This document shows, piece by piece, positions 3,289 to 18,570 of a stretch of 18,570 bases of DNA. The position numbers and the translations under genes are program-made. The stretch lies in assembly GCA_043754515.1 (NCBI GenBank), contig JAYUUO010000026.1:1-18570 (forward strand), given 5' to 3'. This DNA is from Armatimonadota bacterium (lineage in GTDB: Bacteria > Armatimonadota > Armatimonadia > Armatimonadales > Armatimonadaceae). Within the stretch, counting starts at the first letter, position 1. Every line of letters starts with the position of its first letter. The notes below the pieces were generated by a model that was not told the DNA's origin, did no database searches, and worked only from the letters and a program-made list of their open reading frames with translations.

Positions 3289-4311
3289 ATGAATTGGAAA
3301 ACCGTCGGCGTTTGTGCCGCCGCTCTCGTCGCTATCGCCGTCCCATCGTGGGCGCAAGGGGTCACCGATGTCCGCTTCGGTTCCGGCCCGCCCGTCAAGG
3401 TCGTCGCGCCCAAGGGTTTCACACCGAGTGGATACTCGTCCTTTCTTTACGAAGCCTACGCAACGATCTTGACATCGAATCAGTCCCTCAACAGGTACAT
3501 CTCGCCGTCGGACATCGTGATACTATGTCCCCCCGCGACCACCGCCGTGCTGAACGGCAAGCGGCCCACGACTTCCGGCATTTCGGGCAAGGGTGGCCAA
3601 ACCTCGACCCCCATCCCGAGCGAGAGTCGGCTCTCACCGACCGGAACCTATATCATCTACGTCGAGGGGCGACGCTTCCTGACGGTTGACGCGGCGATGG
3701 CGCGCGCGAACGGCATGTCATCGTCCGCGGCGTTGGCGACGAAGCTCGCTCGTCAGTACATGCAACGCTTCCCGCGTGAGTGCTTCCGCCCGCCGACGCT
3801 CCCCGCGCTAGCCGGGGTGCCCGCGAATCCGCCGCTCCGGCTGACCACGAACCTGGAACAGTGCGTCCCGCCCGATGTCCGGGGGCGCGTGATTATGTTT
3901 GGCAAGGGACTGTTCAACACGGCAACCGTGCTACCGGACGGCTCTACGGGACCCGACAAGGCGGCAGTATTGACGCGCAAGACGACCCAGATCATGAACA
4001 ACCTCGACCTGACACAACCGATCCCGGTTGTCGCGGTCAAGGACGGCGCGGAGGCGAATGTCAAGGTCGGCGACAAGGTGCTGTACACGCTGAACGACTT
4101 CGACGCGAAGTCGAACGGCTTCCGCAACGCCATGGGGTTCGCAAAGTTTCTGGTACTCGAAGTCACGAAGCGGCTACAGGCCAAGGCACAACCGGCGACA
4201 CCACCCGCCGTACCCGACGCAGTGCCCGTGCCCGCGCCGGTGGACAAGCCTGCTGATCCGGCCCCGGCACCGCCGACTGTGCCCGCGCCGGTCCCCGCGC
4301 CGACGCGCTAG
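3289..4311 (+). CDS. Secreted hypothetical protein with Pro/Ala-rich C-terminal tail
   Basis: Sec signal MNWKTVGVCAAALVAIAVPSWA; AGGA-type SD upstream; two loosely similar internal segments (IYVEGRRFLTVDAAMARANG / VKVGDKVLYTLNDFDAKSNG); Pro-rich tail. Confidence 0.7.
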   Translation: MNWKTVGVCAAALVAIAVPSWAQGVTDVRFGSGPPVKVVAPKGFTPSGYSSFLYEAYATILTSNQSLNRYISPSDIVILCPPATTAVLNGKRPTTSGISGKGGQTSTPIPSESRLSPTGTYIIYVEGRRFLTVDAAMARANGMSSSAALATKLARQYMQRFPRECFRPPTLPALAGVPANPPLRLTTNLEQCVPPDVRGRVIMFGKGLFNTATVLPDGSTGPDKAAVLTRKTTQIMNNLDLTQPIPVVAVKDGAEANVKVGDKVLYTLNDFDAKSNGFRNAMGFAKFLVLEVTKRLQAKAQPATPPAVPDAVPVPAPVDKPADPAPAPPTVPAPVPAPTR

Positions 4312-4341
4312 CGCGTCGCGGGCTTGCTGATTGTTACATGC

Positions 4342-4496
4342 CCCCTCTCACATAGGCTGGGGCGGTTGCGTCATGGTTTGTCCGCTCGCCCAGCGGGCGT
4401 GGACGGACGGCTTGCCGCGTCTGTGCGGACGGCGAGCCGTTCCGGTGGGCGAGCGGGCAAACCATGACGCAACCGCCCCAGCCTATGTGAGAGGGG
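4342..4496. repeat. Long intergenic palindrome (51-bp arms, one mismatch) with internal stem; REP/MITE-like element
   Basis: 4342-4392 is the reverse complement of 4446-4496 except T4381/G4457; the spacer holds ACGGCTTGCCG/CGGCGAGCCGT. Confidence 0.9.
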
Positions 4497-4517
4497 CACC
4501 CACGCGCGAACTCATCG

Positions 4518-4525
4518 GGTACACT
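4518..4525 (+). promoter_or_regulatory. -10 element GG-TACACT 6 nt upstream of ATG 4532 (probable leaderless promoter)
   Basis: ggTACACTgccgtcATG; no SD. Confidence 0.55.
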
Positions 4526-4531
4526 GCCGTC

Positions 4532-5704
4532 ATGCTTTCTCGCCGCACCCTTCTCGGAGCGTCCCTGCCCGCGCTCGTTCTCGCCGCCGTTCCCGCCCTC
4601 GCGAATGCCCGCGCAACGACCGTCGCCCGCGTCGGCGCGATGGGTAAAGGGGACGCGCCGTTCGTTCGCCTCGCTTTCAACACCGACGCCGTACATCGGT
4701 TGCTGGATCTGCAAAGCACGAAGGATGCGAGCGACGCCGCGATCAACGCGCTGTTCGATCTGCCCGCCTACAAGAACGTGCTCCGGGTTGGCCTCGCCGA
4801 AGGGAGCGTGACGCGGGAGCGGCTCGCCGAGAACGCCCGCGCCGTCATTCGTGGCACCGCTACCCCTCAGAGTCAGCCCCGCGAAGACGCCGCGCGTCTA
4901 CTGATCGTGGACGCCGCTGTATGCCGCGATCTGCTGAAAAAACTGGACGAGACCGCCCCAGTGCGAACGGCGCGCATCGCGGAACACCTCGCCGGGTTCA
5001 CCCCTGACAAAGTGCGCAAGGGCGACCCGATTACGCAGACCGTTTATCTGCACCTCGGCGGCACCTGGGACGCGCTGAATGTGAGCGGGGACATTTTCCT
5101 GAACTTCCACTACTGGCTCGAATACAACCGACCGTCGCTCGACGGGCTGAACCTGGTCGTCGCGCACGAAACGATGCACACGATCCAGAACCGCGCCTAC
5201 GGAAACCCTGAAGCGCAGGAAACCGGCACGGGCGCGTTCCTGACCACCCTGTCCAAGATCCAGCGCGAGGGTACCGCCCGGCTTGTGGAGACCGAGACCG
5301 ACCGCGAAGCCTACGGCGCGTACACCTACGGATTTTTCTATCGCGCCGTGGACGCGGAAACGGTTCGGGACTTCGCCCGCCTCCCGCCCTTGCTCGAAGA
5401 CCTGCACGCGGCATGTTTCCCCACGTTCGACCCGGAGCGGTTCGGGGCGTTGTACGCACGCGGGATGAACAACGGCGGCGTGCTCTACGCGCTCGGCTAC
5501 GGCGCGGCGAAGGCCATTGACGAACGGGTGGGACGGGCCGCGCTGGTCGCGACCGTAGAGGGCGGCCCTAAACCGTTCTGGTCCCGCTACGCCGAACTGT
5601 GCCGCACAACGCCCGCTCTGCCGCGCCTCCCTGCCGTAGTGGAAGCGCGGCTCAAGGAGTTGCCGGAGCGGCTACCGTCCTCGGCGGGAAAGCCGCCCGC
5701 CTAG
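4532..5704 (+). CDS. Exported putative Zn-dependent protease (DUF5700/DUF2268-like gluzincin) with Tat-like signal
   Basis: Start ATG 4532 (the 4331 extension only reads through the palindrome). MLSRRTLLG twin-Arg motif plus hydrophobic core; VVAHETMH (HEXXH) followed by QREGTA (third Zn ligand); YALGY motif near the C-terminus. Confidence 0.7.
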   Translation: MLSRRTLLGASLPALVLAAVPALANARATTVARVGAMGKGDAPFVRLAFNTDAVHRLLDLQSTKDASDAAINALFDLPAYKNVLRVGLAEGSVTRERLAENARAVIRGTATPQSQPREDAARLLIVDAAVCRDLLKKLDETAPVRTARIAEHLAGFTPDKVRKGDPITQTVYLHLGGTWDALNVSGDIFLNFHYWLEYNRPSLDGLNLVVAHETMHTIQNRAYGNPEAQETGTGAFLTTLSKIQREGTARLVETETDREAYGAYTYGFFYRAVDAETVRDFARLPPLLEDLHAACFPTFDPERFGALYARGMNNGGVLYALGYGAAKAIDERVGRAALVATVEGGPKPFWSRYAELCRTTPALPRLPAVVEARLKELPERLPSSAGKPPA

Positions 5705-5717
5705 CCCGCGCCGTGAC

Positions 5718-7154
5718 CTACCGAGCCAGTTCATACAGCGCGTGCGCGTAGATCTTCGCGCACTCGACGAGCCGGGCCAGCGCGATCCGCTCGTTTGACT
5801 GGTGTGCCCCGTCCGGGTCGCCCTCGCGCATCGCGCCGAACGCGACCCCGACCGGGGCGACGGTGGTGGCGTAGGTGCGCCCGCCCATCGTCTTCGGCGG
5901 GGTCATGTCTCCCGTCTGCTCGCGATAGACGCGCAAAAGCGTCCGCACCGGCTCGGCGTCAATCGGGACATAAAGCGGCGGCGTGTGCGCAATGTTAGCG
6001 ACCGTGTAGCCGCTCTCCGAAACGCTCTGGGTGAAGCGCGCGATCAGACGGTCGCCGTCGAGAGTCGCGGGATAGCGCACGTTGAACACGGCGGTCGCCG
6101 TGCCATTGTCAAGTGTCACCACGCCCAGATTGCAGGTCAAGTGGCCAGTCACTTCGTCCTCACAGGCGATAGCGTTCTCCGCGCCGGTGGTGGACGCGCC
6201 GCGCTTGGCAAGGTCCACGAGCCATTCGCTCGCCGCGCTATCGAGGTCATCGAACGCGGACAGGTTAGACGTCAACGCCCGCGCGAGTTTCACGGCGGCG
6301 TTGTCGCCCTGATCCGGGGTCGAGCCGTGCGCGGCTTTGCCTTTCGCGGTCACGACAAGCTCGCCCACCGGACCCGGTTCCCTGTACGCGGTGATACCTG
6401 GCATCTGGTTCAGAACCCCTTCCATGATCGCGAGCGGCTCGTCGTTGCCCCGGAGAACGGCGGTTGCCTCGTCCGGCACCATGTTAGGACGCTGTCCTGA
6501 CACGAACGAGACCAGCCAGACGCTCCCGAACTCGTCGCCGAATGTGTGGGTGACCGTGCCCGTGAACGAACCCTTTTCGGCGTGAACGAGCGGGAACGCG
6601 GCGTCGGGCGTGAACGCCAGCGTCGGCTTCGGCTGACCCGCCGCGCCGAAATAGTGCGTCATACACTCCCAACCGCTCTCTTCGTCGCACCCGAAGATCA
6701 GGCGAATCTTGCGGGACAGTTGCACGCCTTGCGCGTCGCACACCGCCTTAACCGCGAACGCGCCCCACATCGCGGCATAGGTGGGCCCTTTGTCGTCGGT
6801 ACTGCCGCGCCCCCAGAGCCAGCCGTCCACGACGGTCGCGCTCCACGGGTCATACGTCCAGCCTTTCCCGACCGGAACCACGTCGAGATGGCCGAGCATC
6901 GCGGCGATTTCGATGCCGGTTCCGAAGTCGGCGTGCCCGGCGAACCCGCCGAAGTTCTCGGTCACGAAGCCGTTCGCTTCGCAGACCGAGAGCGTGTAGC
7001 GGAGCGCGTCGGCGGCCGCGCGTCCGAACGGCGCGTCGGCGGCGGGGTCCACGGTATCGGCATCTTTCACGCTCGGTATCCGCAGAACGGCTTGCGTAGT
7101 CTCGATCAATTGGGGGACGTGGGATTCGATCCACGTTTCTAGGGCTTCGCGCAT
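5718..7154 (-). CDS. pepV: Dipeptidase PepV (M20/Sapep family metallopeptidase)
   Basis: GHLDVVP, GRGSTDDKGP, IFGCDEESG, FTPDAAFPLVHAEKG, GKAAHGSTP, GGRTYA, AHQSNE; AAGGA SD upstream. Confidence 0.9.
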   Translation of the reverse strand: MREALETWIESHVPQLIETTQAVLRIPSVKDADTVDPAADAPFGRAAADALRYTLSVCEANGFVTENFGGFAGHADFGTGIEIAAMLGHLDVVPVGKGWTYDPWSATVVDGWLWGRGSTDDKGPTYAAMWGAFAVKAVCDAQGVQLSRKIRLIFGCDEESGWECMTHYFGAAGQPKPTLAFTPDAAFPLVHAEKGSFTGTVTHTFGDEFGSVWLVSFVSGQRPNMVPDEATAVLRGNDEPLAIMEGVLNQMPGITAYREPGPVGELVVTAKGKAAHGSTPDQGDNAAVKLARALTSNLSAFDDLDSAASEWLVDLAKRGASTTGAENAIACEDEVTGHLTCNLGVVTLDNGTATAVFNVRYPATLDGDRLIARFTQSVSESGYTVANIAHTPPLYVPIDAEPVRTLLRVYREQTGDMTPPKTMGGRTYATTVAPVGVAFGAMREGDPDGAHQSNERIALARLVECAKIYAHALYELAR

Positions 7155-8189: not shown

Positions 8190-8218
8190 TTGACACCCGG
8201 CATACACGGCGATACACT
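8190..8218 (+). promoter_or_regulatory. Sigma70-type promoter of mqnC
   Basis: TTGACA (8190-8195), 17-bp spacer, TACACT (8213-8218). Confidence 0.85.
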
Positions 8219-8229
8219 TCAACTATACA

Positions 8230-8247
8230 TTGTGAACTTGTTCACAA
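8230..8247. promoter_or_regulatory. Rex operator (ROP)
   Basis: TTGTGAA-cttg-TTCACAA exactly matches the Rex consensus TTGTGAA-N4-TTCACAA, just downstream of the predicted TSS (repressor position). Confidence 0.85.
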
Positions 8248-8285
8248 ATTACAACCGGAACCGGAATCGGTTAGAAGGTACCCCT

Positions 8286-9455
8286 ATGATAAGCCGACGC
8301 GAAATCGCCCTCGCCGCCCCCCAGCCTAAGGACGCCCCGTTCTTGCCCACGGCGTCCCAGACCCGGCGCGGGCCGGATTCGGATATATCAGACATAGCGG
8401 ACAAGGTTTTCGTGGGCGAGCGGCTGTCGGCGGCGGACGGCTTGCGTCTGTTCGAGCATCCGAACCTCGGCGACCTGTCAATGCTCGCCGACCACGCGCG
8501 CCGCGTGAAGAACCCCGAGGAGCGAGTCACCTACGTGATAGGACGCAACGTCAACTACACCAATGTGTGCTGGGTGCGCTGCTCGTTCTGCAACTTCTAC
8601 CGGACGCCGGGGCAGGACGGCGGCTACGTTCTGTCCCAGGAAACCATCTTCCAGAAGATCGAGGAGTTGGTGCAGGTCGGCGGCGTGGAACTCCTGATGC
8701 AGGGGGGACTTAATCCGAAACTCAAGATCGAATACTACGAGGAGCTACTGTCGTCCATACGCGCCCGATTCCCCACGGTGTTGCTACATGCGTTCTCGCC
8801 CGCCGAACTGATTTACGTCAAGAACATCAGCAAATTGACGATGGCGGAGACCCTGATCCGGCTCAAAGCGGCGGGGCTACACTCGGTGCCGGGCGGCGGG
8901 GCGGAGATACTGACCGATCGGGTGCGCGGCTTTATCTCGCCGTATAAAGACACCGCCGAGGAGTGGCTGGACTGCATGCGCACCGCGCACCAGGTCGGGT
9001 TGTACACGTCGGCGACCATGATGTACGGCTCGATAGATACGTTCGCGGACCGCGTCGAGCACCTGATGAGACTGCGCGATCTGCAGGACGAGTCGCTGGC
9101 GAACTACCCGGCGCACTTCCGCGCGTTCATCGCGTGGAACTACCAACCGGACGGCACCGAGCTGGGTGGTGTCCGTGCGTCGGGCTTCGACTACCTGCGC
9201 ACCATCGCCATCGGCCGGATTCTGCTCGATAACTTCCCGCACATCCAAGCGTCCTGGGTGACGCAGGGTCCGAAGATCGGGCAGATCTCGCTCGGCTACG
9301 GCGTGGACGATTTCGGCTCGACGATGATGGAGGAGAACGTCGTCTCGCAGGCAGGTTGCGTGTTCGCGGTGCCGCTCGAGGAGATGGAGCGGCTAATTAC
9401 GGACGCGGGCTACGACGTCAAGCGGCGCAACACGCGCTACGAGATCGTGTCGTGA
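8286..9455 (+). CDS. mqnC: Cyclic dehypoxanthinyl futalosine synthase (radical SAM, futalosine menaquinone pathway)
   Basis: RNVNYTNVCWVRCSFCNF (CX3CX2C), LMQGGLNP, PGGGAEIL, IQASWVTQG, DDFGSTMMEENVVSQAG. Start ATG 8286; the ORF-track start at 8190 is the -35 box. Confidence 0.9.
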   Translation: MISRREIALAAPQPKDAPFLPTASQTRRGPDSDISDIADKVFVGERLSAADGLRLFEHPNLGDLSMLADHARRVKNPEERVTYVIGRNVNYTNVCWVRCSFCNFYRTPGQDGGYVLSQETIFQKIEELVQVGGVELLMQGGLNPKLKIEYYEELLSSIRARFPTVLLHAFSPAELIYVKNISKLTMAETLIRLKAAGLHSVPGGGAEILTDRVRGFISPYKDTAEEWLDCMRTAHQVGLYTSATMMYGSIDTFADRVEHLMRLRDLQDESLANYPAHFRAFIAWNYQPDGTELGGVRASGFDYLRTIAIGRILLDNFPHIQASWVTQGPKIGQISLGYGVDDFGSTMMEENVVSQAGCVFAVPLEEMERLITDAGYDVKRRNTRYEIVS

Positions 9456-9503: not shown

Positions 9504-10082
9504 ATGACCACGCGGTTCTGGGGGACGGTGACGGCAGCGCGAGCGCGCCTGACGCTCGCCAAATTCGAGGGGGAGAACTACCCGACGTCCGACGGGCACT
9601 ACCTACTCGTCGTCGGCACCCTCACGGTCGGCGGCGGCCCCCCTCTGCCCGGCACGGCTACGGTCGCCATTGGGCCGAGGGCGCAGGAGGAGAAGCGGTT
9701 TGCGGTCGGCGACCTGGTGCGCGGGGACGGCGAGCCGGTGCCGGAAACCAACCGCGACGTTTGTGCCGACCTGTACCGCGCACGCACGGTTCACCTGCTG
9801 GCGCGTGCGGCGGATCGCGGCGTCACCGGACGCCCCCCGGATCCGCCGCGCACCGACCCACCCCTCTCGCCGGAAGCCGCCACCCGCGCATCGCGACGCC
9901 CGCTCAGCCCCGGCAACCTCGCGCCCGGCGGCGCGTGCGAATCGTGCCCGTATGGAACCGTGATCGCCGTGGTACGCCTGTCCGACCCGCGCGATATGCG
10001 GCGCGGCATCTGGTCGCGGGTACCGGCGTGTCTCGGCCCGATTGACTGCGTCTACTATGCGCCGCCCGCGCCCGAGGGCTAA
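9504..10082 (+). CDS. Hypothetical protein with C-terminal four-Cys motif, probably co-transcribed with mqnC
   Basis: AGGAGG SD at 9492-9497; beta-rich N-terminus; CESCPYG ... CLGPIDC. Confidence 0.65.
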   Translation: MTTRFWGTVTAARARLTLAKFEGENYPTSDGHYLLVVGTLTVGGGPPLPGTATVAIGPRAQEEKRFAVGDLVRGDGEPVPETNRDVCADLYRARTVHLLARAADRGVTGRPPDPPRTDPPLSPEAATRASRRPLSPGNLAPGGACESCPYGTVIAVVRLSDPRDMRRGIWSRVPACLGPIDCVYYAPPAPEG

Positions 10083-10089
10083 CTGCGTC

Positions 10090-13000
10090 CTACTCCCGCG
10101 AGCAGATCAGCTGGTACGGGCAACGGTCGCACTCGCCGCTCACGGTCGGGGCCACGACCCCGCGCTTCATCCGCTCCACCGCGTCTTTCAGATTTTTAAG
10201 TCGGTTGCATTTCGCCTTAGTTCCAGGCGTTACTGGGAGGTCGACGCCGCCCGCGTGCGGGTAGTAGAATGACACCGCCGCGCCGCCGCGGTCCGAGCAC
10301 TCCGCGCTCTCATGATCCGCGTGCAGTGCATATAACTTCGCGCGGCTATCGTCAGGAGTGGTCTTCGGCACCTGAGTCCCTGACTTGTGACGGCGGTAGA
10401 GTTTCGGGCCTACCGCCGGGGTGATCTCTTCGTCCACGCTGAAGCGGAGTGCGTGTGTCGCGCCGTCCGCGAAGGTGCCGAGCGGTAATGTTTTGGATTG
10501 TCTGTACGCGACGGTGGTGTTTTGCGCGGTCGCGGCCGTCATCTGCTTTTCGATGTGCGAGACCAGCCGCTCCGCCGCCTTCCGGAACAACGGCGTCTGC
10601 CAGTCGGAAACATCAGGCCCCGCTTGCTCCCAATTGCGGGCGAAGGCGGCGCGAAACTTCACCGGGTCACCCCCCGCATCCCGCGCCGCATTATAGACGG
10701 CCTGGTGGTAGTTGAGAAACGCGCTCTCTGTCTGGGGTAGGTCGTAGATTTCCGCGAACAGGTACTTTCGGGGGCATCCCTCGTACAGGCGCAACAGGTA
10801 CTCCGGTATCTCCTCCCGCACCGAGAACGGGATCAACTCCGGGCCGGGGGCGGTCTCATCGCTAGCGGATGTCGTCGGCACCGCTGCTTCGTATGCGGAC
10901 GCAATGTCGTCGCCCGAGGCGCACGTCTCCCCGCTCGCCGCCAGATGCTCCGTGACCGCGCTACGCAGAGATGAGATCGCGCCGGCTGAGCGCGACCCGT
11001 ACCGCGCCGCGCTGGATAGGTACAGTTTGTCGCGGGCACGAGTGACCGCGACATAAAAGACGCACGCTTCCTCACGTTCGTGCGCTTCCCCCGGCGTCGC
11101 GTCGTCCGTTTGAATCAAAGGTGGCGGAATCGGTAGCGTATCTTCGCGCTCGCGGACAGGAAATTCACCCTCGACGCAGACCGGGACGAACACCGCGCCC
11201 CATTCCAACCCTTTGCTACTGTGCGCGGTGAGGATAGAGACCGCGTCGCCGACGCGCGGCAACTCGTCTGACACGCCCAGCCCCCCCGACTCGAGCGCGG
11301 CGGAAACGTAGGCGAGGAATGCCCCGGTATCTGTGCCCGTTTCTAGCCGGTCGGCGTCCTCGTCCATTGGCAATTCGGGCGCGTCGGTGGGTGCGGTTTG
11401 GCTGGTCACCGCCTCGCCGGACCCCGCCGCCCCGCCTGTAGAAATCGACGCCACTTCGGCCCGTGCCGCGCTGGCGAGCGCGTCCCGCCCGGTGGCGAAC
11501 GCCGCCGCCAGGTCCAGCGTCTGCCCGACGGTCGCCAGCACAGCCCGTGCCGCGTACTCCGTTTTCGCGTCAGTCGACAGAAGCGAGCGGAACCAGCGGG
11601 CATGCTCGAACAGGTAGACGGACAGGTTGTGGTGCGGGCGGGCGGTCACGGACAGTGCATCGGCGACGCCAAGTAGCTCGCGGCAGACGACGCGCCCCGC
11701 GCCGGATAGTGTCACGATTCCGCCGTACGCCGCCGCTCGTAGGAGTTTCCGCGCCCCCCATCGTCCGCGACGGTCGGCGAACAACGCCCGCCGGTCCGTT
11801 TCCGATAGCGCAAAGTCCGACGTCGTACCCGCGCCTGCGGGCAACATTGAAAGCCCCGCGATCCCTCGCGTATCATCCGCCGCAAGTAGCAACGCACTGA
11901 CGAGAACGCGGAAGACCGGCCGCTCGTGAATAGGCCCCGCCCACCGGTGCGGGATGCCCGCCCGCGTCAGCGCGGCCGCGATCCGCTCGGCGTGGTTGCG
12001 CTTGCGCACCAGCACCGCCATATCACTCAGTGTACGTCCCCTGTCCTCCTCACTTCGGATATGCGCGGCGATCCAATGGTTCTCGGCAGTCACGTCCGGC
12101 AGGTGCGCCGACATTACGGCGGGCGTTCCGTCCTCACTCGCGGGCCGCGTCGCGTTTAAGTCTGGCGGCACGAGACCCGGATGGTTCCCCAAGATCGGGA
12201 CGGGCACCCCGGCACCGGCCCGCACGATAGCGGGAACAGAACGGTAGTTCCGCCCCAGCCGTACCACCGTGGCGGACGGATAATACTCCCCCGTAAAGAA
12301 GCGCGACAAGTTCACCGGGGACGCGCCACGAAACCCGAAGATACTCTGTCGCGGGTCGCCCACCACCCATACCACGCCGCGGCCACCGTCTAGCTCACGC
12401 GTCAGCCCCCCCGACACATAGTTGATGTCCTGGAACTCGTCCACAAGGATGTGCTGGTACCGCTCGCGGATTTCGGCGGCGACCTCCGACACGGTGAACA
12501 GACGCAACGCTTCGGTTTGCAAGTCGCCGTAGTCGAGTAGACCGCGACGACGCAGGGTGCGCTGGTAATCGGCGTAGAACGTCGCGCCGTCCGCGACCCA
12601 ATCCGGCTCTGAACTGGTGTCCGGGTTCGCGTCGCGCCACCCCTGCGCCAGCCGCTCCCATTCCTCCACGCCCGCGTTCTCCTCTTTCGCGCGGCTAACC
12701 GCCTTCAACTGAGTCCGCAGACTTTCGAGCGCGCCGGTGACGCCGCTCAAAAATCCGAACGCTGCATTGGCGGCGCGGCGGCGGCACAGGAGTAGAGCGT
12801 CCATCGGCGTCACCAGTCGCAAAGGCGTTTTGAGGCCGATGCGTCCGCCGTACTGCTGAAGCAGTTGCAGGCCGAATGCGTGAAACGTGAACACCTCGAC
12901 ACTCGCCGCGTGTTCTTCCCCGACCCGCGCCGCGATCCGCTCACGCATTTCGCCCGCCGCGCGGTTCGTGAATGTCAGAGCAAGGATGTGTCTCGGGTGA

Positions 13001-13806
13001 ATCCCCTCCGACACGAGGCGGGCGTAGCGCGAAACCAGAATGCGCGTCTTGCCCGCGCCCGGACCGGCGACGATCAGCGCGGGCGCCGCGCAATCGGCGG
13101 CGGCACGTTGCTCGGGATCAAGGGGCGCGGCAAGATCGTCGTTGACGCTAGCAGGGGGCGGATCGTCACCCGCTCCGGCAGGCGCGGCGAACAAAAGGGT
13201 GTTCGCCATGCCGACCCGCATCAGCGAGTGAGCGACGCCGAAATGTGCCGCAAGCGACCCTACGGTACGAAGGGGACTGGATTCCAGCAGGCGGCGCAGT
13301 TCGTCGCCCGGCACCAATAGCTCGGTCGCGAACGCGTTCGCCTGAATCTCGTAGTAGTCACGCTCGTTATAGCCGCGCAGGAGCGTCATCGCGTGTTCGG
13401 ACAGGTCTAGCCCGGTGAGTTGCGCTTGCCGTCCCGCCGACAGGTCGCCGGACGCGATATCGGGGTTGATCGTCGCGGCGGTGTCGGCGAGCACGGCGTG
13501 GAGCGGGTGATCCAACGCGTGATGCCCTATCTCGTGCGCGATCACGAAGGCGGCGCGTTCCGTCGGGAGGCCAGGGCGGATCAGGATTAAACCGTCCACG
13601 CGGTTCAGTTCGCCTTCAATATTGGTGCCCGCGAGACTTTCGTCGTTTATCACGGTCAGCCCGAAGACAAGCTCGGCGACCTGTTCGAGCAGGGCGCGGA
13701 GCGGGATGGCCTCGCCGAGTGTCCCACGCGGCGTCCCCCCACGCGCAACGAACTCCTCGTTCCAGAGGCGGCTAACGCGCTTCTGGATTAGCACGGCGGC
13801 ATCCAC
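10090..13806 (-). CDS. Fusion protein: ImmA/IrrE (M78) metallopeptidase + UvrD/PcrA SF1 helicase + C-terminal AddB/Cas4-like Fe-S PD-(D/E)XK-like domain
   Basis: FVIAHEIGH (HEIGH at 13522-13536) and EIQANAFATELLVP; AGPGAGKT (13045-13068), ALTFTNRAA, LVDEFQD (DEFQD at 12427-12441), VGDPRQSIFGFRG, NYRS, TAHSSKGLEW, FYVAVTRAR; YEGCPRKY ... CDRCPYQLIC. GTG start 6 bp after the upstream stop. Confidence 0.9.
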   Translation of the reverse strand: MDAAVLIQKRVSRLWNEEFVARGGTPRGTLGEAIPLRALLEQVAELVFGLTVINDESLAGTNIEGELNRVDGLILIRPGLPTERAAFVIAHEIGHHALDHPLHAVLADTAATINPDIASGDLSAGRQAQLTGLDLSEHAMTLLRGYNERDYYEIQANAFATELLVPGDELRRLLESSPLRTVGSLAAHFGVAHSLMRVGMANTLLFAAPAGAGDDPPPASVNDDLAAPLDPEQRAAADCAAPALIVAGPGAGKTRILVSRYARLVSEGIHPRHILALTFTNRAAGEMRERIAARVGEEHAASVEVFTFHAFGLQLLQQYGGRIGLKTPLRLVTPMDALLLCRRRAANAAFGFLSGVTGALESLRTQLKAVSRAKEENAGVEEWERLAQGWRDANPDTSSEPDWVADGATFYADYQRTLRRRGLLDYGDLQTEALRLFTVSEVAAEIRERYQHILVDEFQDINYVSGGLTRELDGGRGVVWVVGDPRQSIFGFRGASPVNLSRFFTGEYYPSATVVRLGRNYRSVPAIVRAGAGVPVPILGNHPGLVPPDLNATRPASEDGTPAVMSAHLPDVTAENHWIAAHIRSEEDRGRTLSDMAVLVRKRNHAERIAAALTRAGIPHRWAGPIHERPVFRVLVSALLLAADDTRGIAGLSMLPAGAGTTSDFALSETDRRALFADRRGRWGARKLLRAAAYGGIVTLSGAGRVVCRELLGVADALSVTARPHHNLSVYLFEHARWFRSLLSTDAKTEYAARAVLATVGQTLDLAAAFATGRDALASAARAEVASISTGGAAGSGEAVTSQTAPTDAPELPMDEDADRLETGTDTGAFLAYVSAALESGGLGVSDELPRVGDAVSILTAHSSKGLEWGAVFVPVCVEGEFPVREREDTLPIPPPLIQTDDATPGEAHEREEACVFYVAVTRARDKLYLSSAARYGSRSAGAISSLRSAVTEHLAASGETCASGDDIASAYEAAVPTTSASDETAPGPELIPFSVREEIPEYLLRLYEGCPRKYLFAEIYDLPQTESAFLNYHQAVYNAARDAGGDPVKFRAAFARNWEQAGPDVSDWQTPLFRKAAERLVSHIEKQMTAATAQNTTVAYRQSKTLPLGTFADGATHALRFSVDEEITPAVGPKLYRRHKSGTQVPKTTPDDSRAKLYALHADHESAECSDRGGAAVSFYYPHAGGVDLPVTPGTKAKCNRLKNLKDAVERMKRGVVAPTVSGECDRCPYQLICSRE

Positions 13807-13812
13807 TCGTGG

Positions 13813-14589
13813 TTACGCCCCCGCGCCGTCGGAGCTATTCGGGCCGATGTCCGCGGCTACGCCCACCCAGTAGGCGGTCTGTTCCGGGGTAAGTGCCGTC
13901 CGTATCCGCTCGAACTCGGCGTCGAAGTCCTCGGTTGCCCCCCGCCGCTCGCGCACCAGGTCGGATTCGGGCACGCCCCGCGCCGAGTAGGCCGCTGCGG
14001 TGACCAGGGGGGAATTTGCACCCGTCGCTTGAAGCACCGCCCGCGCCTGCTCGCGGCTAACAGTTAGGGCGTCCGCGACAGCCCGCGTCAGTCGCTCGGG
14101 CCAATCCCGGAACTGCCCGCGCTCGATCTTTAAAAGTAACTCCTTCGGCACATACAGCCGCCGCGCCAGTTCCGCCAGACTCCAGCCGCGCGCCTTGCGC
14201 TCCTCACCGAGCGCGGCCGCGACAGAGACGGCTGGCTCCCTTAGCAGCACGGAAGCACTCGCGGCACGTGTCAGTCCGAGTTGCGACCGGGCAGCGGCGA
14301 TTCCGGCGTCCGCCGCCGCGATGAACTCCGTCGTGTACTCGGCCTTATCTTCGCGGAGCCGCTGTTCGGCGGGCAATACTATCAGAACGGCATCCAGTAG
14401 CGGCGCGGCGTAGCGAGGGTAGCGGCGCGCGACGCGGTCGTACGCTCCCCCCTCGCCGGATTCCATCGCGAGCAACAGTTCATCCAGCGCGGTCTCATAA
14501 AGCGGCTCGTCGAGTAGCGATCCGAACCCCAGAGTAGCCGCATCGTCGGTAGGGGCGGACGTCGTTTCGTTTTCGTTTGGTGTATTCAT
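13813..14589 (-). CDS. XRE-family helix-turn-helix protein with an N-terminal helical extension
   Basis: LGEERKARGWSLAELARRLYVPKELLLKIERGQ is an HTH_3/XRE pattern; AGGAG upstream. Confidence 0.8.
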   Translation of the reverse strand: MNTPNENETTSAPTDDAATLGFGSLLDEPLYETALDELLLAMESGEGGAYDRVARRYPRYAAPLLDAVLIVLPAEQRLREDKAEYTTEFIAAADAGIAAARSQLGLTRAASASVLLREPAVSVAAALGEERKARGWSLAELARRLYVPKELLLKIERGQFRDWPERLTRAVADALTVSREQARAVLQATGANSPLVTAAAYSARGVPESDLVRERRGATEDFDAEFERIRTALTPEQTAYWVGVAADIGPNSSDGAGA

Positions 14590-14652
14590 GTCTGAGGGAC
14601 ACTCCTTTTTTTCGGGTGGTGTCGAGAACAGTCGGTGTCAGGAGTCGGCATT

Positions 14653-15480
14653 TTAATAGGTCGCGGCGAGGTAGTCGCCGTACTCACCGTGGGAGGCGTG
14701 ACGCGCCCGCGCCCATGCGTGCATGTCGGCGCGCGCCCTCTCTATGTAGTTATAAACGGTCTTCTCGGAACGCACACCGAGTATCCGCGCGATCGCGGCG
14801 TGTGTCAATCCGCGAACGGAAAGGAGAATCGCCTCGCGGTGGCGCGGATCACGGACGGCTTCCAGAAGCGAATCTAGCGCGGCCTCCTCAAATAGCGTTT
14901 TGAGCGCGGAATTTGAGTCGGGGTCATGCGACTCGGCGAGCATATCTCCGGTATCGTCGCCCGACGCGGCGAGTGGGCGATCCGCCTCGCGCTGTTCGCG
15001 GGGGTAAGCGGGGGCGTCGCTGTCGCCACCCGGTTTTACCCACTCGCGCCCGTAGCCCCGTTGCACTCCGCGCGTAAACAGGTTGTAGGCCAGACGTTTG
15101 AGACAGGTCCAGAACATCACCGGCTTCTCCCAACCTCGCGCACTCTCACCGCTTCCCAGATCCTGCCACTTCTGATACAGCGCGAGGGTGAGGTCGCGCG
15201 CGCCATCCGTGGTCAACGACGTGTCGTGGAGGTAGGCGTTAGCGTATGCTAAGAGTCTCCCCCGAGTTAGATCGAGCGCGCGTTCGCACGCGGCGTCGCC
15301 ACGACGCTTCGCATCGTCCGCCTTAGCCAGTTCCCCGCGTTCCCGGTGCGCCGCTTCGCACTTCCAGTGGCGGCGCATCTCTGTCACCAGGCCCGCGCAC
15401 TCGGTCGCCTTGTTCGCGCCGCCGACGCCTCGGGCGGGGGAAGGGTCGGGATGATTCGTCGTGGATTGCGTCGGGTTCAT
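14653..15480 (-). CDS. ECF-type sigma-70 family RNA polymerase sigma factor (divergent)
   Basis: Region-2-like LLAYANAYL..ARDLTLALYQKW..FWTCLKRLAYNLF; region-4 HTH PRHREAILLSVRGLTHAAIARILGVRSEKTVYNYIERARADM; AGGA SD. Confidence 0.8.
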   Translation of the reverse strand: MNPTQSTTNHPDPSPARGVGGANKATECAGLVTEMRRHWKCEAAHRERGELAKADDAKRRGDAACERALDLTRGRLLAYANAYLHDTSLTTDGARDLTLALYQKWQDLGSGESARGWEKPVMFWTCLKRLAYNLFTRGVQRGYGREWVKPGGDSDAPAYPREQREADRPLAASGDDTGDMLAESHDPDSNSALKTLFEEAALDSLLEAVRDPRHREAILLSVRGLTHAAIARILGVRSEKTVYNYIERARADMHAWARARHASHGEYGDYLAATY

Positions 15481-15761
15481 AATATCCTGTTCCTAAGCGG
15501 GTAGATGTCGCGCAAACCGGCGTTCATCCGTCGCTTATAGGGAGAGTTGTCACGGTTGCGCCGTCCCAGTCGGTAAAGTTTGGTGAAAAACCTTCGGGGT
15601 GTGACGGGCCGCGTGTCCACCCGAAGAGACAGCATTATTCGTGCCGTTCACTCGTTATGCATCCGGGGATGGGTCTTGATGCAAAAAAATCTTTTAATCT
15701 GGTACTATTACGAGACATTATGCACTTCGTTTTGAGCAATTTTCTATCCTAAAAAACTGTT

Positions 15762-15812
15762 ATCGTTGCAACAATTCGATAATCTTCTCTGTTTTTCCTA
15801 CAGTGCAACGAT
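15762..15812. promoter_or_regulatory. 9-bp inverted repeat in the AT-rich divergent promoter region (candidate operator)
   Basis: ATCGTTGCA (15762-15770) ... TGCAACGAT (15804-15812); related TGGCAA units at 15832 and 15838. Confidence 0.4.
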
Positions 15813-15852
15813 TATCCTGATTCATGTTGGGTGGCAATGGCAACGCGGAACA

Positions 15853-15861
15853 TGGTATTAT
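15853..15861 (+). promoter_or_regulatory. Extended -10 promoter (TG-G-TATTAT) directly upstream of the structured region
   Basis: TGgTATTAT; predicted TSS ~15866-15868 coincides with the first base-paired nucleotides. Confidence 0.6.
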
Positions 15862-15917
15862 ATATACGTAATCGCGCTGGAGTTCGCTAGAAGAGGGAAC
15901 CAGGTGTGAATTACGTG

Positions 15918-15959
15918 GCGACCGCGTAGTTCAGTAGGAGCATACGACGGTCGTTTTTT
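15918..15959 (+). terminator. Intrinsic terminator (3:4 stem of a putative attenuator)
   Basis: GCGACCG(15918-15924)/CGGTCGT(15948-15954) with inner CGTA/TACG and GTTC/GAGC pairs, then TTTTTT (15954-15959). Confidence 0.65.
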
Positions 15960-16365
15960 GTTACCTAAGTAGGAGTTACGCGGTTGGCGGTTTCGGATGC
16001 CCGGATCTGTCCGTCCCACCCGCAAGCGGGTACCCAATGTCCGGCTACGAAGTAGCCTAGACAGGCAATCGTCAAAACAAGTTTTGACTGTACTTGTTTC
16101 GCCGATGACATGGGTTTCAACCCGCGTTCTTAATGAACCGTGTAACTCCTACCTAATATACCCCCTCATCAACACCGATGTGTCGGCGTCGCCAGCAATG
16201 GACCTGCTGTCAGACCTTGCGGGTGTCAGAATTCGAGCTAGGTATCCTCAGCCCCTGACGCGGTACCGACTCTAAAGTCCTTGACCATTCGCCCACCCCG
16301 GTGGATTTATTGATGTGTCTCCTACCAGGCATATGTATGGCTCGCATGCTTCGGAAAACATATGT

Positions 16366-16419
16366 GTTTCCTGGAAGGGCACTGTTTCTTGGTTAGAAAA
16401 CAGTGCCTTTTCAGGAAAC
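16366..16419. terminator. 22-bp hairpin between the candidate RNA and the convergent DUF1573 gene
   Basis: GTTTCCTGGAAGGGCACTGTTT / AAACAGTGCCTTTTCAGGAAAC with two G-U pairs on +; 7 nt from the minus-strand stop at 16427. Confidence 0.6.
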
Positions 16420-16426
16420 TAATTGT

Positions 16427-16828
16427 TTACTTCCTCCATATAAACACGTACACCGGTCGGGTTCGGAAGCCCTGCCGCGCCGTGAAGCGCAACGCCTCTG
16501 TTCGTTCGCCGACTGACGCCGCCTCGAAAGCCACCGTGAACGCTCCCGATTGGTGGGGCAGGATAGTTGTTGCGGGCGTCACGACGCGGACGCAGGCGCA
16601 ACCGGTCATCGGCGGCGGCATGACAGTGAGCGGCAGGAGGTACGACGGGTTGCGGAAGATGACGGTGCGCGGCGTATCGCGCTCGTAAGGTAGCGTAACG
16701 GACTCTGTGTGATTCTGCCACCGATATTCTGGCATGGCTTTAAGTGCGGTGAGGGAGGCAACGACTGTAGCAGTCGCAATTACCTCCCAACTATTTCTTG
16801 ACAGCGATCCAGAAATCCTAGTTTGCAA
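16427..16828 (-). CDS. Small DUF1573-like Ig-fold protein with N-terminal hydrophobic segment
   Basis: FRNPSYLLPLTV..TGCACVRV..TILPHQSGAFTVAF fits the DUF1573 pattern. Start uncertain: TTG 16828 overlaps the upstream stop; the ORF is open to 16870. Confidence 0.6.
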   Translation of the reverse strand: MQTRISGSLSRNSWEVIATATVVASLTALKAMPEYRWQNHTESVTLPYERDTPRTVIFRNPSYLLPLTVMPPPMTGCACVRVVTPATTILPHQSGAFTVAFEAASVGERTEALRFTARQGFRTRPVYVFIWRK

Positions 16829-17430
16829 CTTGAACTTTATAGTCGGATCTTTCCAGTGCTGCGTCCGCATACATCTTAACGGTTTTGCTGTTAGATGAGA
16901 CGAAGGGCAAGATTACAGCCACTGACTCCTGTCGGTGCATATTGCTCAGGATAGCAATATCCATACTCACTGCAAACTCTTTGTGATCTGTGTTGATGAC
17001 CGGCGATTCGCTTGTCAACTTGTTCGAGATGAAAATGAACAGATCATCTTGTTGTAGCTTCGTCAGGCGATTTGATGCCACACACTGTATCAACAAAGCC
17101 ACAATCGAGAAGTGGCGTAGATCCTCGATTTGTGGATCATTGACAGGAGCAACCTGTTTGACTTTTTGTATAAGCCAATCAGCATCAGCGTCTGTTATTC
17201 GGTTTTCTTCCATGAATGTTTTATTGATTTTCGCGAACATCTCGGCATCAACACCCTGAAAAAAATGCAGTTTGGTTATGTTTTGCTTGCTCTTTTCGAG
17301 ATCATACATAAGTTTTAGCGCTTCGTGTCTTGAATCTATCCATTAGCCATCCCGAGCCGATCCATGCAAACACCAACAGGTTCGAGCATAACAGGATTAG
17401 AAATATCCTGTTTATAGTTTTTCTTTGCAT
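16818..17430 (-). pseudogene. Membrane-anchored alpha-helical (HEAT-like C-terminus) protein apparently split by a 1-bp frameshift near 17343
   Basis: ATG 17430 opens a 42-aa TM ORF (MQRKTINRIFLILLCSNLLVFAWIGSGWL...) ending at TGA 17302-17304. The 163-aa ORF (16818..17309) is open back to 17342. Removing one base gives ..GSGWLWIDSRHEALKLMYDLEK.. Two coupled genes remain possible. Confidence 0.5.
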
Positions 17431-17506
17431 GATTTTTGCGTTTTAGGGGCCTAAGATAGGCCACCAACAAACACCTATGGCAGCGTACCTCAGAGTCTTC
17501 ACGCTC

Positions 17507-17765
17507 CTAATTCAATCCGCCTATGTTCTTCAAGCACATGAACTTAACGCACAAGGTGACACATTCGGCATAACCAAACGGCCCCGTTTCGATTGTGGCA
17601 ATACATCCTGCGGTACATTCTACTGCACAGAGACCGAGATTGACACCAGGTGTCTGCGGAGACTGGCCGCGCCGTCATGACGGCTATTCCCCCCACGAGT
17701 GAGGCGGACAATACTGCGATCATCACGAGTTGCTTTACATAACTAGGCTGTTTGACCATTTTCAT
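17507..17765 (-). pseudogene. Secreted six-cysteine peptide precursor, apparently frameshifted just after the signal peptide
   Basis: Signal MKMVKQPSYVKQLVMIAVLSASLVGGIAVMTARPVSA from ATG 17765. The +1 frame reads PGVNLGLCAVECTAGCIATIETGPFGYAECVTLCVKFMCLKNIGGLN* (TAG 17507-17509) and has no start codon of its own. Confidence 0.6.
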
Positions 17766-17775
17766 TGCTCCATTC

Positions 17776-18570
17776 TCACATTCTGGTCGCCATGATAACA
17801 ACTAGTACCGGTACGACGATTCGCGGTTGTTTCTCGCTACCGGTGGCGATAACAATCCGTTCGTTCAGCACGCTCCCCGAAAGGAATGCGCCGGGCAAAA
17901 TTGTGACATGGAGAGTGGCTTGAGCATCCGACGATCTTTCGACTCGGGCGGATACTCCCTTCGGCGCGGAAACGACCCGAAAGTCGGGGGGCGGGCCTGG
18001 CGCGACGGTGGACAGGATCGCGGTCAATTCGACCGTCTTACTACTCTTGCTGACGAGTCCGAAGTTGAGTAGATCGGGCGACGTGATGAATTGACCACTC
18101 GCGGTGTAGGACACGGGAATTCGCACCGGAGGCAGGCTCACATCGGTCGGCGTGAGAGTCATCGTCACCTGCTTCGCGCCCGGAAGGCGGGACGCGACCG
18201 CCATGACGCTGACAGTCGCTACTTTAAAACCGGCATCGGGAGTGATGGTGGCGCGGACGCCGTCTGACGCGAGAGGTTTAGCGAATGCGACCGCGCCGCC
18301 CGAAACGCGGTGTATGGAAACAGTGGCGGTCTTCGTCTCGCCACCCGGTATCGTGCCGAGTTCCAGTATGCCGGATGGGCTGACGCGCCACTCGGTCTTC
18401 ACCGTTCCACCGAGTGACAGCGTGATCGGCTCGTCCGGCGTCTCGGTGATGAAGATCGAGACCTGTTTCTCAATGGCTCCGGGGCGGCCGGATGAGTCGA
18501 AAGTGACGGCGAGCGGCACGGAGCCACGCGCGGGAACGAAGGACAGTCTCCCGGTCGAGGTGCAACCACA
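17776..18570 (-). CDS. DUF1573 domain protein with additional Ig-like domains; 5' end lies beyond the window
   Basis: Frame is open to the window end: CGCTSTGRLSFVPARGSVPLAVTFDSSGRPGAIEKQVSIF (DUF1573 CGCT motif); repeats SPSGILELGTI and SPDLLNFGLV start further Ig-like domains. Confidence 0.8.
   Translation of the reverse strand, partial: CGCTSTGRLSFVPARGSVPLAVTFDSSGRPGAIEKQVSIFITETPDEPITLSLGGTVKTEWRVSPSGILELGTIPGGETKTATVSIHRVSGGAVAFAKPLASDGVRATITPDAGFKVATVSVMAVASRLPGAKQVTMTLTPTDVSLPPVRIPVSYTASGQFITSPDLLNFGLVSKSSKTVELTAILSTVAPGPPPDFRVVSAPKGVSARVERSSDAQATLHVTILPGAFLSGSVLNERIVIATGSEKQPRIVVPVLVVIMATRM

Follow-up and report, generated by a model that had tools for sequence, protein, structure and literature searches.

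The window analysed here is an 18,570-nucleotide stretch of an Armatimonadota bacterium (GenBank assembly GCA_043754515.1, contig JAYUUO010000026.1), and the subject of this study is a trio of co-oriented genes on its minus strand. Read in the direction of transcription, the three open reading frames (ORFs) encode a sigma factor of the extracytoplasmic function (ECF) type (275 amino acids; 14653–15480), a protein with a central XRE helix-turn-helix (HTH) domain (258 amino acids; 13813–14589) and a fusion protein of 1238 amino acids with a GTG start (10090–13806). The sigma and XRE genes are separated by 63 bp and the XRE and fusion genes by 6 bp; order, gaps and positions agree with an initial annotation of this DNA, and the five families named there (Peptidase_M78, UvrD, PDDEXK_1, HTH_3 and Sigma70_r4_2) were all matched in a Pfam scan. 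The fusion joins an M78 peptidase and a small HTH to a UvrD-type superfamily 1 (SF1) helicase and an iron-sulfur (Fe-S) nuclease-like domain. A predicted autoregulatory promoter, TTTACCG-N18-TGAC, lies on the same strand 68 bp before the sigma start (15549–15577). The trio is a real, conserved and uncharacterised regulatory module.

The fusion protein was matched in Pfam by Peptidase_M78 (E 1e-9), UvrD-helicase (2e-59, residues 229–503), UvrD_C (7e-26) and PDDEXK_1 (2e-6, residues 1005–1235), a set shared by nearly all of the 120 homologues listed. Its N-terminal part (residues 36–205; 13192–13701) is an IrrE/CapP-type zinc peptidase with the M78 arrangement of an HEXXH motif, a downstream glutamate and then a small HTH. 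The peptidase family profile matches both IrrE (3DTE, E 6e-9) and CapP (7T5T, E 1e-8) over peptidase and HTH. The initial annotation had reported an intact HEXXH..E..AN.FA peptidase joined to the SF1 helicase motifs, and direct reading found every one of them. HEIGH occupies residues 91–95 (13522–13536), the third ligand is E153 in E153-IQANAFA, and H91, H95 and E153 are invariant among 72 sequences. The helicase, of UvrD/PcrA type (residues 229–933; 11008–13122), was recognised by Pfam, by profile and by its motifs, all of which are intact: Walker A (AGPGAGKT at 247; 13045–13068), Walker B (DEFQD at 456; 12427–12447) and SF1 motifs Ia, III, IV, V and VI. No GAF domain was matched by Pfam in the fusion, and the profile matches to IrrE and CapP stop at the HTH. 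The helicase begins at residue 229, straight after a short linker, at the place where a GAF domain would be.

The C-terminal domain (10102–10794) is nuclease-like and of AdnA type, with Fe-S cysteines at 1011, 1226, 1229 and 1235; the three nearest the C-terminus do not vary, and the remaining one is conserved in 88 of 99 family members. Among solved structures, the AdnA nuclease domain is its nearest relative (profile E 5e-8). The catalytic D-x-K is replaced by R-H-K (10378–10395): the AdnA DLKTG aligns with rhrtG of the family, placing R1139 at the AdnA aspartate, and this column holds arginine in 70 of the 99 members, with neither aspartate nor glutamate among its six commonest residues. 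Three of four AdnA entries have alanine at the DLKTG aspartate or are wild type for comparison, the alanine being found in nuclease-dead structures, and the D934A form of AdnA is described as nuclease-dead in the accessible text of its report (PMC5314763). Thus, while the peptidase-helicase fusion of the initial annotation stands, an active nuclease is not supported, as arginine replaces the catalytic aspartate in the window and the residue is lost family-wide. The domain is probably a dead nuclease and may serve as an Fe-S DNA-binding module. PADLOC matches suggesting Gabija or a reverse-transcriptase-associated helicase were also rejected, as the GajB matches span the helicase only; Pfam found no GajA-type OLD-family nuclease among the 16 window proteins scanned. 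No AdnB-like second subunit adjoins the fusion, which is flanked by the XRE gene and by a convergent ORF of 192 amino acids.

The sigma factor belongs to a divergent family with an N-terminal extension. The single sequence matched Sigma70_r4_2 in Pfam (E 3e-7) and fell under the NCBIfam ECF cut-off (TIGR02937, 22.8 bits vs 42.9). A profile made from 66 sequences of the family matched SigE, AlgU, SigL and RpoE across residues 67–249, spanning regions 2 to 4, with a best E of 4e-20. By this profile the protein has the layout required of an ECF sigma factor, in which regions 2 and 4 are present and regions 1.1 and 3 are missing.

The XRE protein, whose family comprises 1,619 clusters at 50% identity, was matched by HTH_25 and HTH_3 in Pfam, and its structure was predicted with a mean confidence (pLDDT, predicted local distance difference test) of 78.7. 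The central XRE domain (residues 124–191; 14017–14220) resembles DdrO (Z 6.9), CapH (Z 6.5), SinR (Z 6.5) and ImmR (Z 5.8), and a further motif lies at the C-terminus. An extra N-terminal domain had been proposed in the initial annotation, and the models indeed place a folded helical domain of about 90 residues ahead of the XRE domain. This region (residues 24–112; 14254–14520) carries the family motif W..RYP..A..L, was modelled confidently as four helices (pLDDT 84.9) and is a candidate anti-sigma domain. Fold searches with it found no clear relative and no match to a known anti-sigma fold, the best Z being 6.5 among helical bundles; the top row, one chain from an AlpA-loaded RNA polymerase complex, had this Z and did not rise above background. 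An Atlas search gave only scores below 0.9. A likeness between the RYP motif and the N-terminal regions of ECF-linked kinases from planctomycetes was unsupported, as the 150 profile matches listed are proteins of 121–269 amino acids and Pfam and NCBIfam gave no match. The protein as a whole is the predicted substrate of the peptidase and the predicted inhibitor of the sigma factor.

To define how widely the trio is conserved, we surveyed the fusion and its neighbourhood. Listed homologues of the fusion come from sources including Armatimonadetes, Ktedonobacterales and Roseiflexus, and the peptidase-domain profile had matches in 86 of 301 Armatimonadota and 57 of 401 Chloroflexota genomes. Within Armatimonadota it is near-universal in four families (13/13, 17/19, 16/17 and 14/15). 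Among 108 fusion loci read, the order sigma-XRE-fusion was found at 47 of the 66 loci from Armatimonadota, at 15 of the 40 from Chloroflexota, at one Methylococcaceae locus and in the window, so that the joint conservation on which the initial annotation depended holds; one locus (L026) was moved by hand from 'alone' to 'trio' as its ORF call had overrun, and five loci end at contig edges. Sigma homologues occur on 78 plasmids and XRE homologues on 75, and seven of eight plasmid regions read hold the full trio, which is found on proteobacterial and cyanobacterial plasmids. Downstream of these seven lie multiubiquitin/ThiF/DUF6527 genes (three), ThiF (two), unannotated genes of the same size (one) and an insertion sequence (one). 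A whole-fusion alignment scan of the GTDB collection gave 4 fusions among 80 loci listed, its patterns being generic to helicases, and the range beyond Armatimonadota and Chloroflexota rests on the plasmids and one locus.

Several loci depart from the simple trio. In one genome (G035; L021:1626–4488) a chromosomal ubiquitin-like operon comes after the trio, made up of a small ORF and genes for DUF7665, a JAB peptidase and ThiF. Two genomes of family f8 have extra XRE copies before one fusion (L149:267–4355 and L143:4723–6956), the former with two sigma-XRE pairs and a short third XRE gene. At three other loci (L164:4427–6364, L161:4478–6877 and L416:1890–2687) the third gene is shorter (645, 799 and 266 amino acids) with a weak or missing helicase match, and these may be degenerate or re-fused variants of the peptidase.

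The fusion and the XRE gene do not always adjoin, which allowed us to ask which parts travel together. The XRE gene was found elsewhere in 31 of 34 genomes with a stand-alone fusion and in none of seven genomes without one, and in 19 of 20 such loci fetched the sigma gene lies directly upstream of it, the twentieth being at a contig end. The three XRE-less genomes (G029, G033 and G095) have all lost the glutamate of HEXXH and have no strict site of the motif described below. Additionally, every one of the six fusions whose peptidase motif is broken or missing stands alone. From these pairing and glutamate-loss counts, sigma and XRE are thus the fixed pair, with peptidase activity kept where the XRE gene is. 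Co-evolution of predicted peptidase activity with the XRE gene is therefore a supported reading of the family.

Word counts upstream of 74 sigma genes yielded a bipartite motif, TTTCCG-N18-GAGT. The form TTCCG-N18-NAGT is present in 28 of the 74 sigma-upstream regions, while other spacers of 12–24 give 0–3, so by sequence the sigma genes have a predicted bipartite promoter of their own upstream, as expected for ECF factors. It recurs in divergent copies with the same spacing, often with an ATG 7 nt after it. A bipartite motif of fixed spacing is the shape of an ECF promoter. Across the 301 Armatimonadota genomes the strict motif has 185 sites, 152 of which fall in the 64 genomes with a fusion (reversed control, 17), whereas the other 237 genomes have 33 (control about 71 by hand tally). 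It is likely that the motif is the promoter recognised by the module's own sigma factor.

We read 153 sites in module-bearing families, collected with three versions of the pattern and forming a subset of the sites found. Nine precede the sigma gene itself. Of the remaining 144, 52 stand at genes assigned by Pfam to repair, recombination, nuclease or defence functions, two of them at gene ends, while a wrong-spacer control gave none before such genes in 24 sites. These genes comprise RecA (three), RecN, MutS, RecJ-type DHH proteins (four), a RecQ-like helicase, LigA (two), GyrA (two), SSB (two), DprA, RecD2, PARP, YhaM-like HD proteins (three), Cas3-HD (two), Cas4, Cas6, HsdR, five methylases, DUF1016, DndB, DUF559 and Uma2. 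Among the sites left uncounted, five precede a family matching Slr1353_N, and others precede bleomycin-resistance/glyoxalase, transposase and ADP-ribosyl hydrolase genes. LexA scored above its threshold in 33 of the 34 genomes, among them this one, which rules out the module as a substitute for an absent LexA; because LexA is present, the module would run beside the SOS response.

Some motif sites merit separate mention. The family matched to Slr1353_N by the Atlas lies behind the motif in this genome and five others (six in all; L319, L320, L322, L378, L392 and L463); it has no match in the local Pfam or NCBIfam, the tie of Slr1353_N to Sak annealing proteins is weak, and a role as a single-strand annealing or damage-response protein is a candidate function. 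One genome (G034; L328, L343–L354) has 13 motif sites, eight with a start codon exactly 9 nt after the motif; these nine-nucleotide sites precede DprA, GIY-YIG, three DUF559 and IS200-like transposase genes. In two genomes the motif lies inside the 3' end of cas6 and is directed into the remaining cas operon (L234:1501–1527 and L240:1501–1527).

The genome of the window carries two systems: a sigma-XRE pair typical of its family on contig C299, with a fusion on contig C43, and the window trio. In a quick, unrooted tree of 40 selected fusions, the window protein groups (support 99) with a patchy set from Armatimonadota and Chloroflexota, far from the C43 copy, and the window trio is a second, probably acquired system. 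A motif-like site lies upstream of the stand-alone fusion on C43. The window sigma has the variant motif TTTACCG-N18-TGAC, alike in shape to the family motif TTTCCG-N18-GAGT, and this variant occurs at nine sites in this genome vs one to five at other spacers. Six of these lie 35–117 bp before a gene: the sigma gene and a truncated copy of it, cas6, a gene of recJ type, a small ORF together with a YhaM-S24 operon, and a gene that is unassigned. The cas6 and recJ-type genes are hit independently by the variant motif here and are targets of the main motif elsewhere. Main-type sites in this genome precede ligA, recD2, PARP, a WGR-ligase gene and two hsdR genes.

The truncated sigma copy is on contig C28 (L017:98–442), 87% identical over 113 amino acids with a stop near the contig end, and the variant motif is kept upstream of it with differences in the spacer only. 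On the same contig, a gene fusing a YhaM-like HD domain to a LexA-type S24 domain (4304–5764) stands behind a second copy of the motif. A YhaM-HD/S24 gene also adjoins the trio in another genome (G003; L019:7636–10004) and is divergent from it in a third (G036; L233), there behind the motif. As a recurring partner, this protein would bring a RecA-type autocleavage domain into the circuit.

Taken as a working model, the XRE protein would keep the ECF sigma inactive. Once loaded on broken or foreign DNA, the zinc peptidase with its fused helicase would cut the XRE protein, and the freed sigma would transcribe repair and anti-phage genes from promoters of the TTTCCG-N18-GAGT type. The window copy would use the variant promoter TTTACCG-N18-TGAC and govern a small regulon consisting of itself, cas6, recJ and the YhaM-S24 operon. 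The initial annotation had proposed a DNA-sensing proteolytic switch of this kind, with the N-terminal domain as a possible anti-sigma; its reading is supported in part, and the repair and defence output lay beyond what it could see. In the accessible text of two reports, single-stranded DNA (ssDNA) is bound between the peptidase and GAF domains of PprI and CapP (PMC10904395, PMC13228613), and loss of GAF from PprI abolishes both ssDNA binding and activation (PMC10904395). We think it quite probable that the motor and the probably dead Fe-S domain together replace GAF as the DNA sensor. That the XRE protein is the peptidase substrate is likely. Anti-sigma action is proposed because of gene order and the pairing with sigma, and direct binding of the sigma, as opposed to operon repression alone, seems modestly probable. 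For the mechanism as a whole, helicase-gated proteolysis freeing an ECF sigma for a repair and defence regulon, it is this reading that we lean towards.

A number of observations count against this model. One genome (G289) has a broken peptidase and keeps its XRE gene, contrary to a strict rule of co-retention. The DNA-binding domain of the XRE protein looks intact, as in plain repressors. The window protein has no cysteine in the loop after HEXXH where many but not all CapP proteins have a cysteine switch, a residue found in the switch-loop region of 34 of 54 parsed trio members. As for the regulon, the gene behind the motif is unassigned or unrelated at 92 of the 144 sites, strict sites are missing from 21 of the 64 genomes with a fusion, and most Chloroflexota and plasmid sigma genes have no such motif upstream. 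Gene classes were assigned by hand after the sites were read and related genomes are not independent, so that the Fisher P of 8e-5 overstates the enrichment. In the genome of the window the main-type motif shows no genome-wide enrichment relative to other spacers, and three of the nine variant sites are inside genes. When a looser variant pattern was applied to five further genomes of the clade, it gave 66 sites vs 51 controls, and none of 30 such sites read by eye stood before a recognisable DNA gene; because of this lack of signal, the variant motif is supported in this genome only.

Cleavage could also work without any contact between XRE protein and sigma. Were the XRE protein an ordinary repressor of CapH/DdrO type bound at the operon or at the motif, its loss would simply raise the sigma level. 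All characterised M78 partners are DNA-binding repressors, the central XRE domain matches DdrO, CapH, ImmR and SinR, and the fold searches gave the N-terminal domain no clear relative among solved anti-sigma domains, at the Z already given. However, the XRE gene always comes straight after sigma within one operon, where an anti-sigma gene is usually found, and stays with sigma when the fusion moves. The 90-residue N-terminal domain is absent from CapH and DdrO, and the sole conserved upstream motif has no inverted repeat, being bipartite, non-palindromic and of fixed spacing like an ECF promoter. We regard plain repression as unlikely, and as the main rival to direct inhibition of the sigma.

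Two further explanations change the role of the fusion or of the motif. The fusion might be mainly an AdnA-like repair or defence enzyme within the sigma regulon, its peptidase aimed at another target and the sigma switched by another signal. A UvrD motor followed by an Fe-S domain is the architecture of AdnA/AdnB, the six fusions with a dead or missing peptidase retain an intact motor and so suggest that the motor is useful by itself, and the C43 fusion has its motif-like site. Against this, the nuclease residue is lost family-wide, no AdnB-like partner adjoins, and the peptidase glutamate is kept wherever the XRE gene adjoins and lost in the three XRE-less genomes, which makes an enzyme of this kind improbable as the main explanation. 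Alternatively, the module could be a local controller of an adjoining immune operon in the manner of CapH+CapP, with the genome-wide motif belonging to another regulator and the window copy an orphan. The plasmid trios lie directly before multiubiquitin/ThiF/DUF6527 genes and the G035 trio before DUF7665, JAB and ThiF, while the clade of the window is patchy and nested among Chloroflexota sequences, with a truncated second sigma copy in this genome. Yet the motif was obtained from the upstream region of the sigma itself and follows the module across families, four of which carry the module near-universally, unlike mobile defence cassettes, and in the window copy all catalytic motifs of peptidase and motor are intact. 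A purely local controller is very improbable, and the helicase-gated release of sigma is still the model we prefer.

The module would work like CapP+CapH or IrrE+DdrO and is, by architecture, a member of neither. Similar to CapP+CapH, the pair that controls CBASS, Bub and other immune operons (Lau et al. 2022; Calloji et al. 2026), it has an M78 peptidase with HEXXH..E and a small HTH, an XRE partner and, on plasmids, a position before ubiquitin-like operons. It differs in having, in place of GAF, a motor of UvrD type and a probably dead nuclease domain with Fe-S cysteines, and an XRE protein that has an extra N-terminal domain and lies in an operon behind an ECF sigma. The predicted output is a scattered regulon that is activated, whereas CapH/CapP derepresses one adjoining operon. 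The XRE domain is central here; in CapH, DdrO and ImmR it is N-terminal and followed by a dimerisation domain only. With IrrE/PprI and DdrO, the pair of the Deinococcus radiation-desiccation response, the module shares the M78 peptidase, the XRE protein and, by prediction, a genome-wide repair set outside LexA control, in IrrE/DdrO with recA and uvrD. The repair set of IrrE/DdrO also includes gyrA and ssb. The ssDNA-binding arginine seven residues before HEXXH in IrrE/PprI corresponds to R84 of the window protein. DdrO represses through a palindromic operator; the module instead has an ECF-promoter-shaped motif, a sigma factor, a fused helicase and no GAF, and its predicted regulon includes CRISPR and restriction genes. 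As in AdnA/AdnB and AddA/AddB, a UvrD-type motor precedes a RecB-like domain with four Fe-S cysteines, although the fusion differs in its arginine for the catalytic aspartate, its N-terminal peptidase and the want of an adjoining partner subunit. Like ECF/anti-sigma pairs under regulated proteolysis, it has a sigma gene followed by a small co-transcribed partner and a predicted autoregulatory bipartite promoter; unlike them, the protease is a soluble DNA motor and not a membrane protease, and the partner has an XRE domain.

To our knowledge, the known ssDNA-sensing switches CapW, CapP+CapH, CapK+CapS and IrrE+DdrO all act by lifting repression. The initial annotation knew of no characterised system of this composition. 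In the literature searched we found no helicase-bearing description, but a predicted sigma70-family gene, mentioned without further study, accompanies capH and capP in 24 CBASS (cyclic oligonucleotide-based antiphage signalling) systems in the accessible text of Lau et al. 2022 (10.1101/2022.04.27.489752), a text in which the word 'helicase' is absent, so the combination of sigma with this switch is not without precedent. The accessible text of Casas-Pastor et al. 2021 places the ECF130 and ECF201 groups near HTH genes and has no match for IrrE, helicase or Armatimonad-. The module is likewise not described in the accessible parts of Casas-Pastor et al., Iyer 2006, Iyer 2017 and Calloji 2026. 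Neither a description of the trio or fusion nor a paper on the DNA-damage response of Armatimonadota was found in the literature searched, which for the former did not cover subscription papers.

If true, the model would link proteolysis and an alternative sigma to a DNA motor powered by ATP, and would co-induce repair and immunity genome-wide by positive control. The broadest form of this idea, a DNA-damage and anti-phage response parallel to LexA, built from a protease borne on a motor that loads at DNA ends or gaps, a hybrid anti-sigma/XRE protein and an ECF sigma that jointly induces recombination, ligation, CRISPR-Cas and restriction genes, genome-wide in Armatimonadota and Chloroflexota, local on plasmids ahead of ubiquitin-like operons and with paralogues of shifted promoter specificity giving two circuits in one cell, is about evenly balanced. 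The module offers Armatimonadota a concrete promoter and regulon open to testing, and Bub operons for which no regulator is listed gain a candidate. In Mesorhizobium and Leptolyngbya, which carry plasmid versions, the mechanism is within reach in tractable hosts.

Around the trio in the window, the 192-amino-acid ORF (9504–10082, plus strand) converges on the fusion, lies 7 bp away from the fusion's stop codon and has no family match in Pfam, NCBIfam or PADLOC. Beyond it, MqnC, the cyclic dehypoxanthinyl futalosine synthase (8190–9455, plus strand; over the NCBIfam cut-off), is an unrelated housekeeping neighbour. On the other side, the G+C content is 48–53% across 15500–18000 vs 62% in the genome, and there are minus-strand ORFs at 16427–16870, 16818–17309 and 17776–18519, two with weak matches to the Ig-like DUF1573. 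Elsewhere in this genome, a gyrA ORF of about 2,260 amino acids (C1:33385–40164) contains a LAGLIDADG-like stretch, which we take to suggest one or more inteins.

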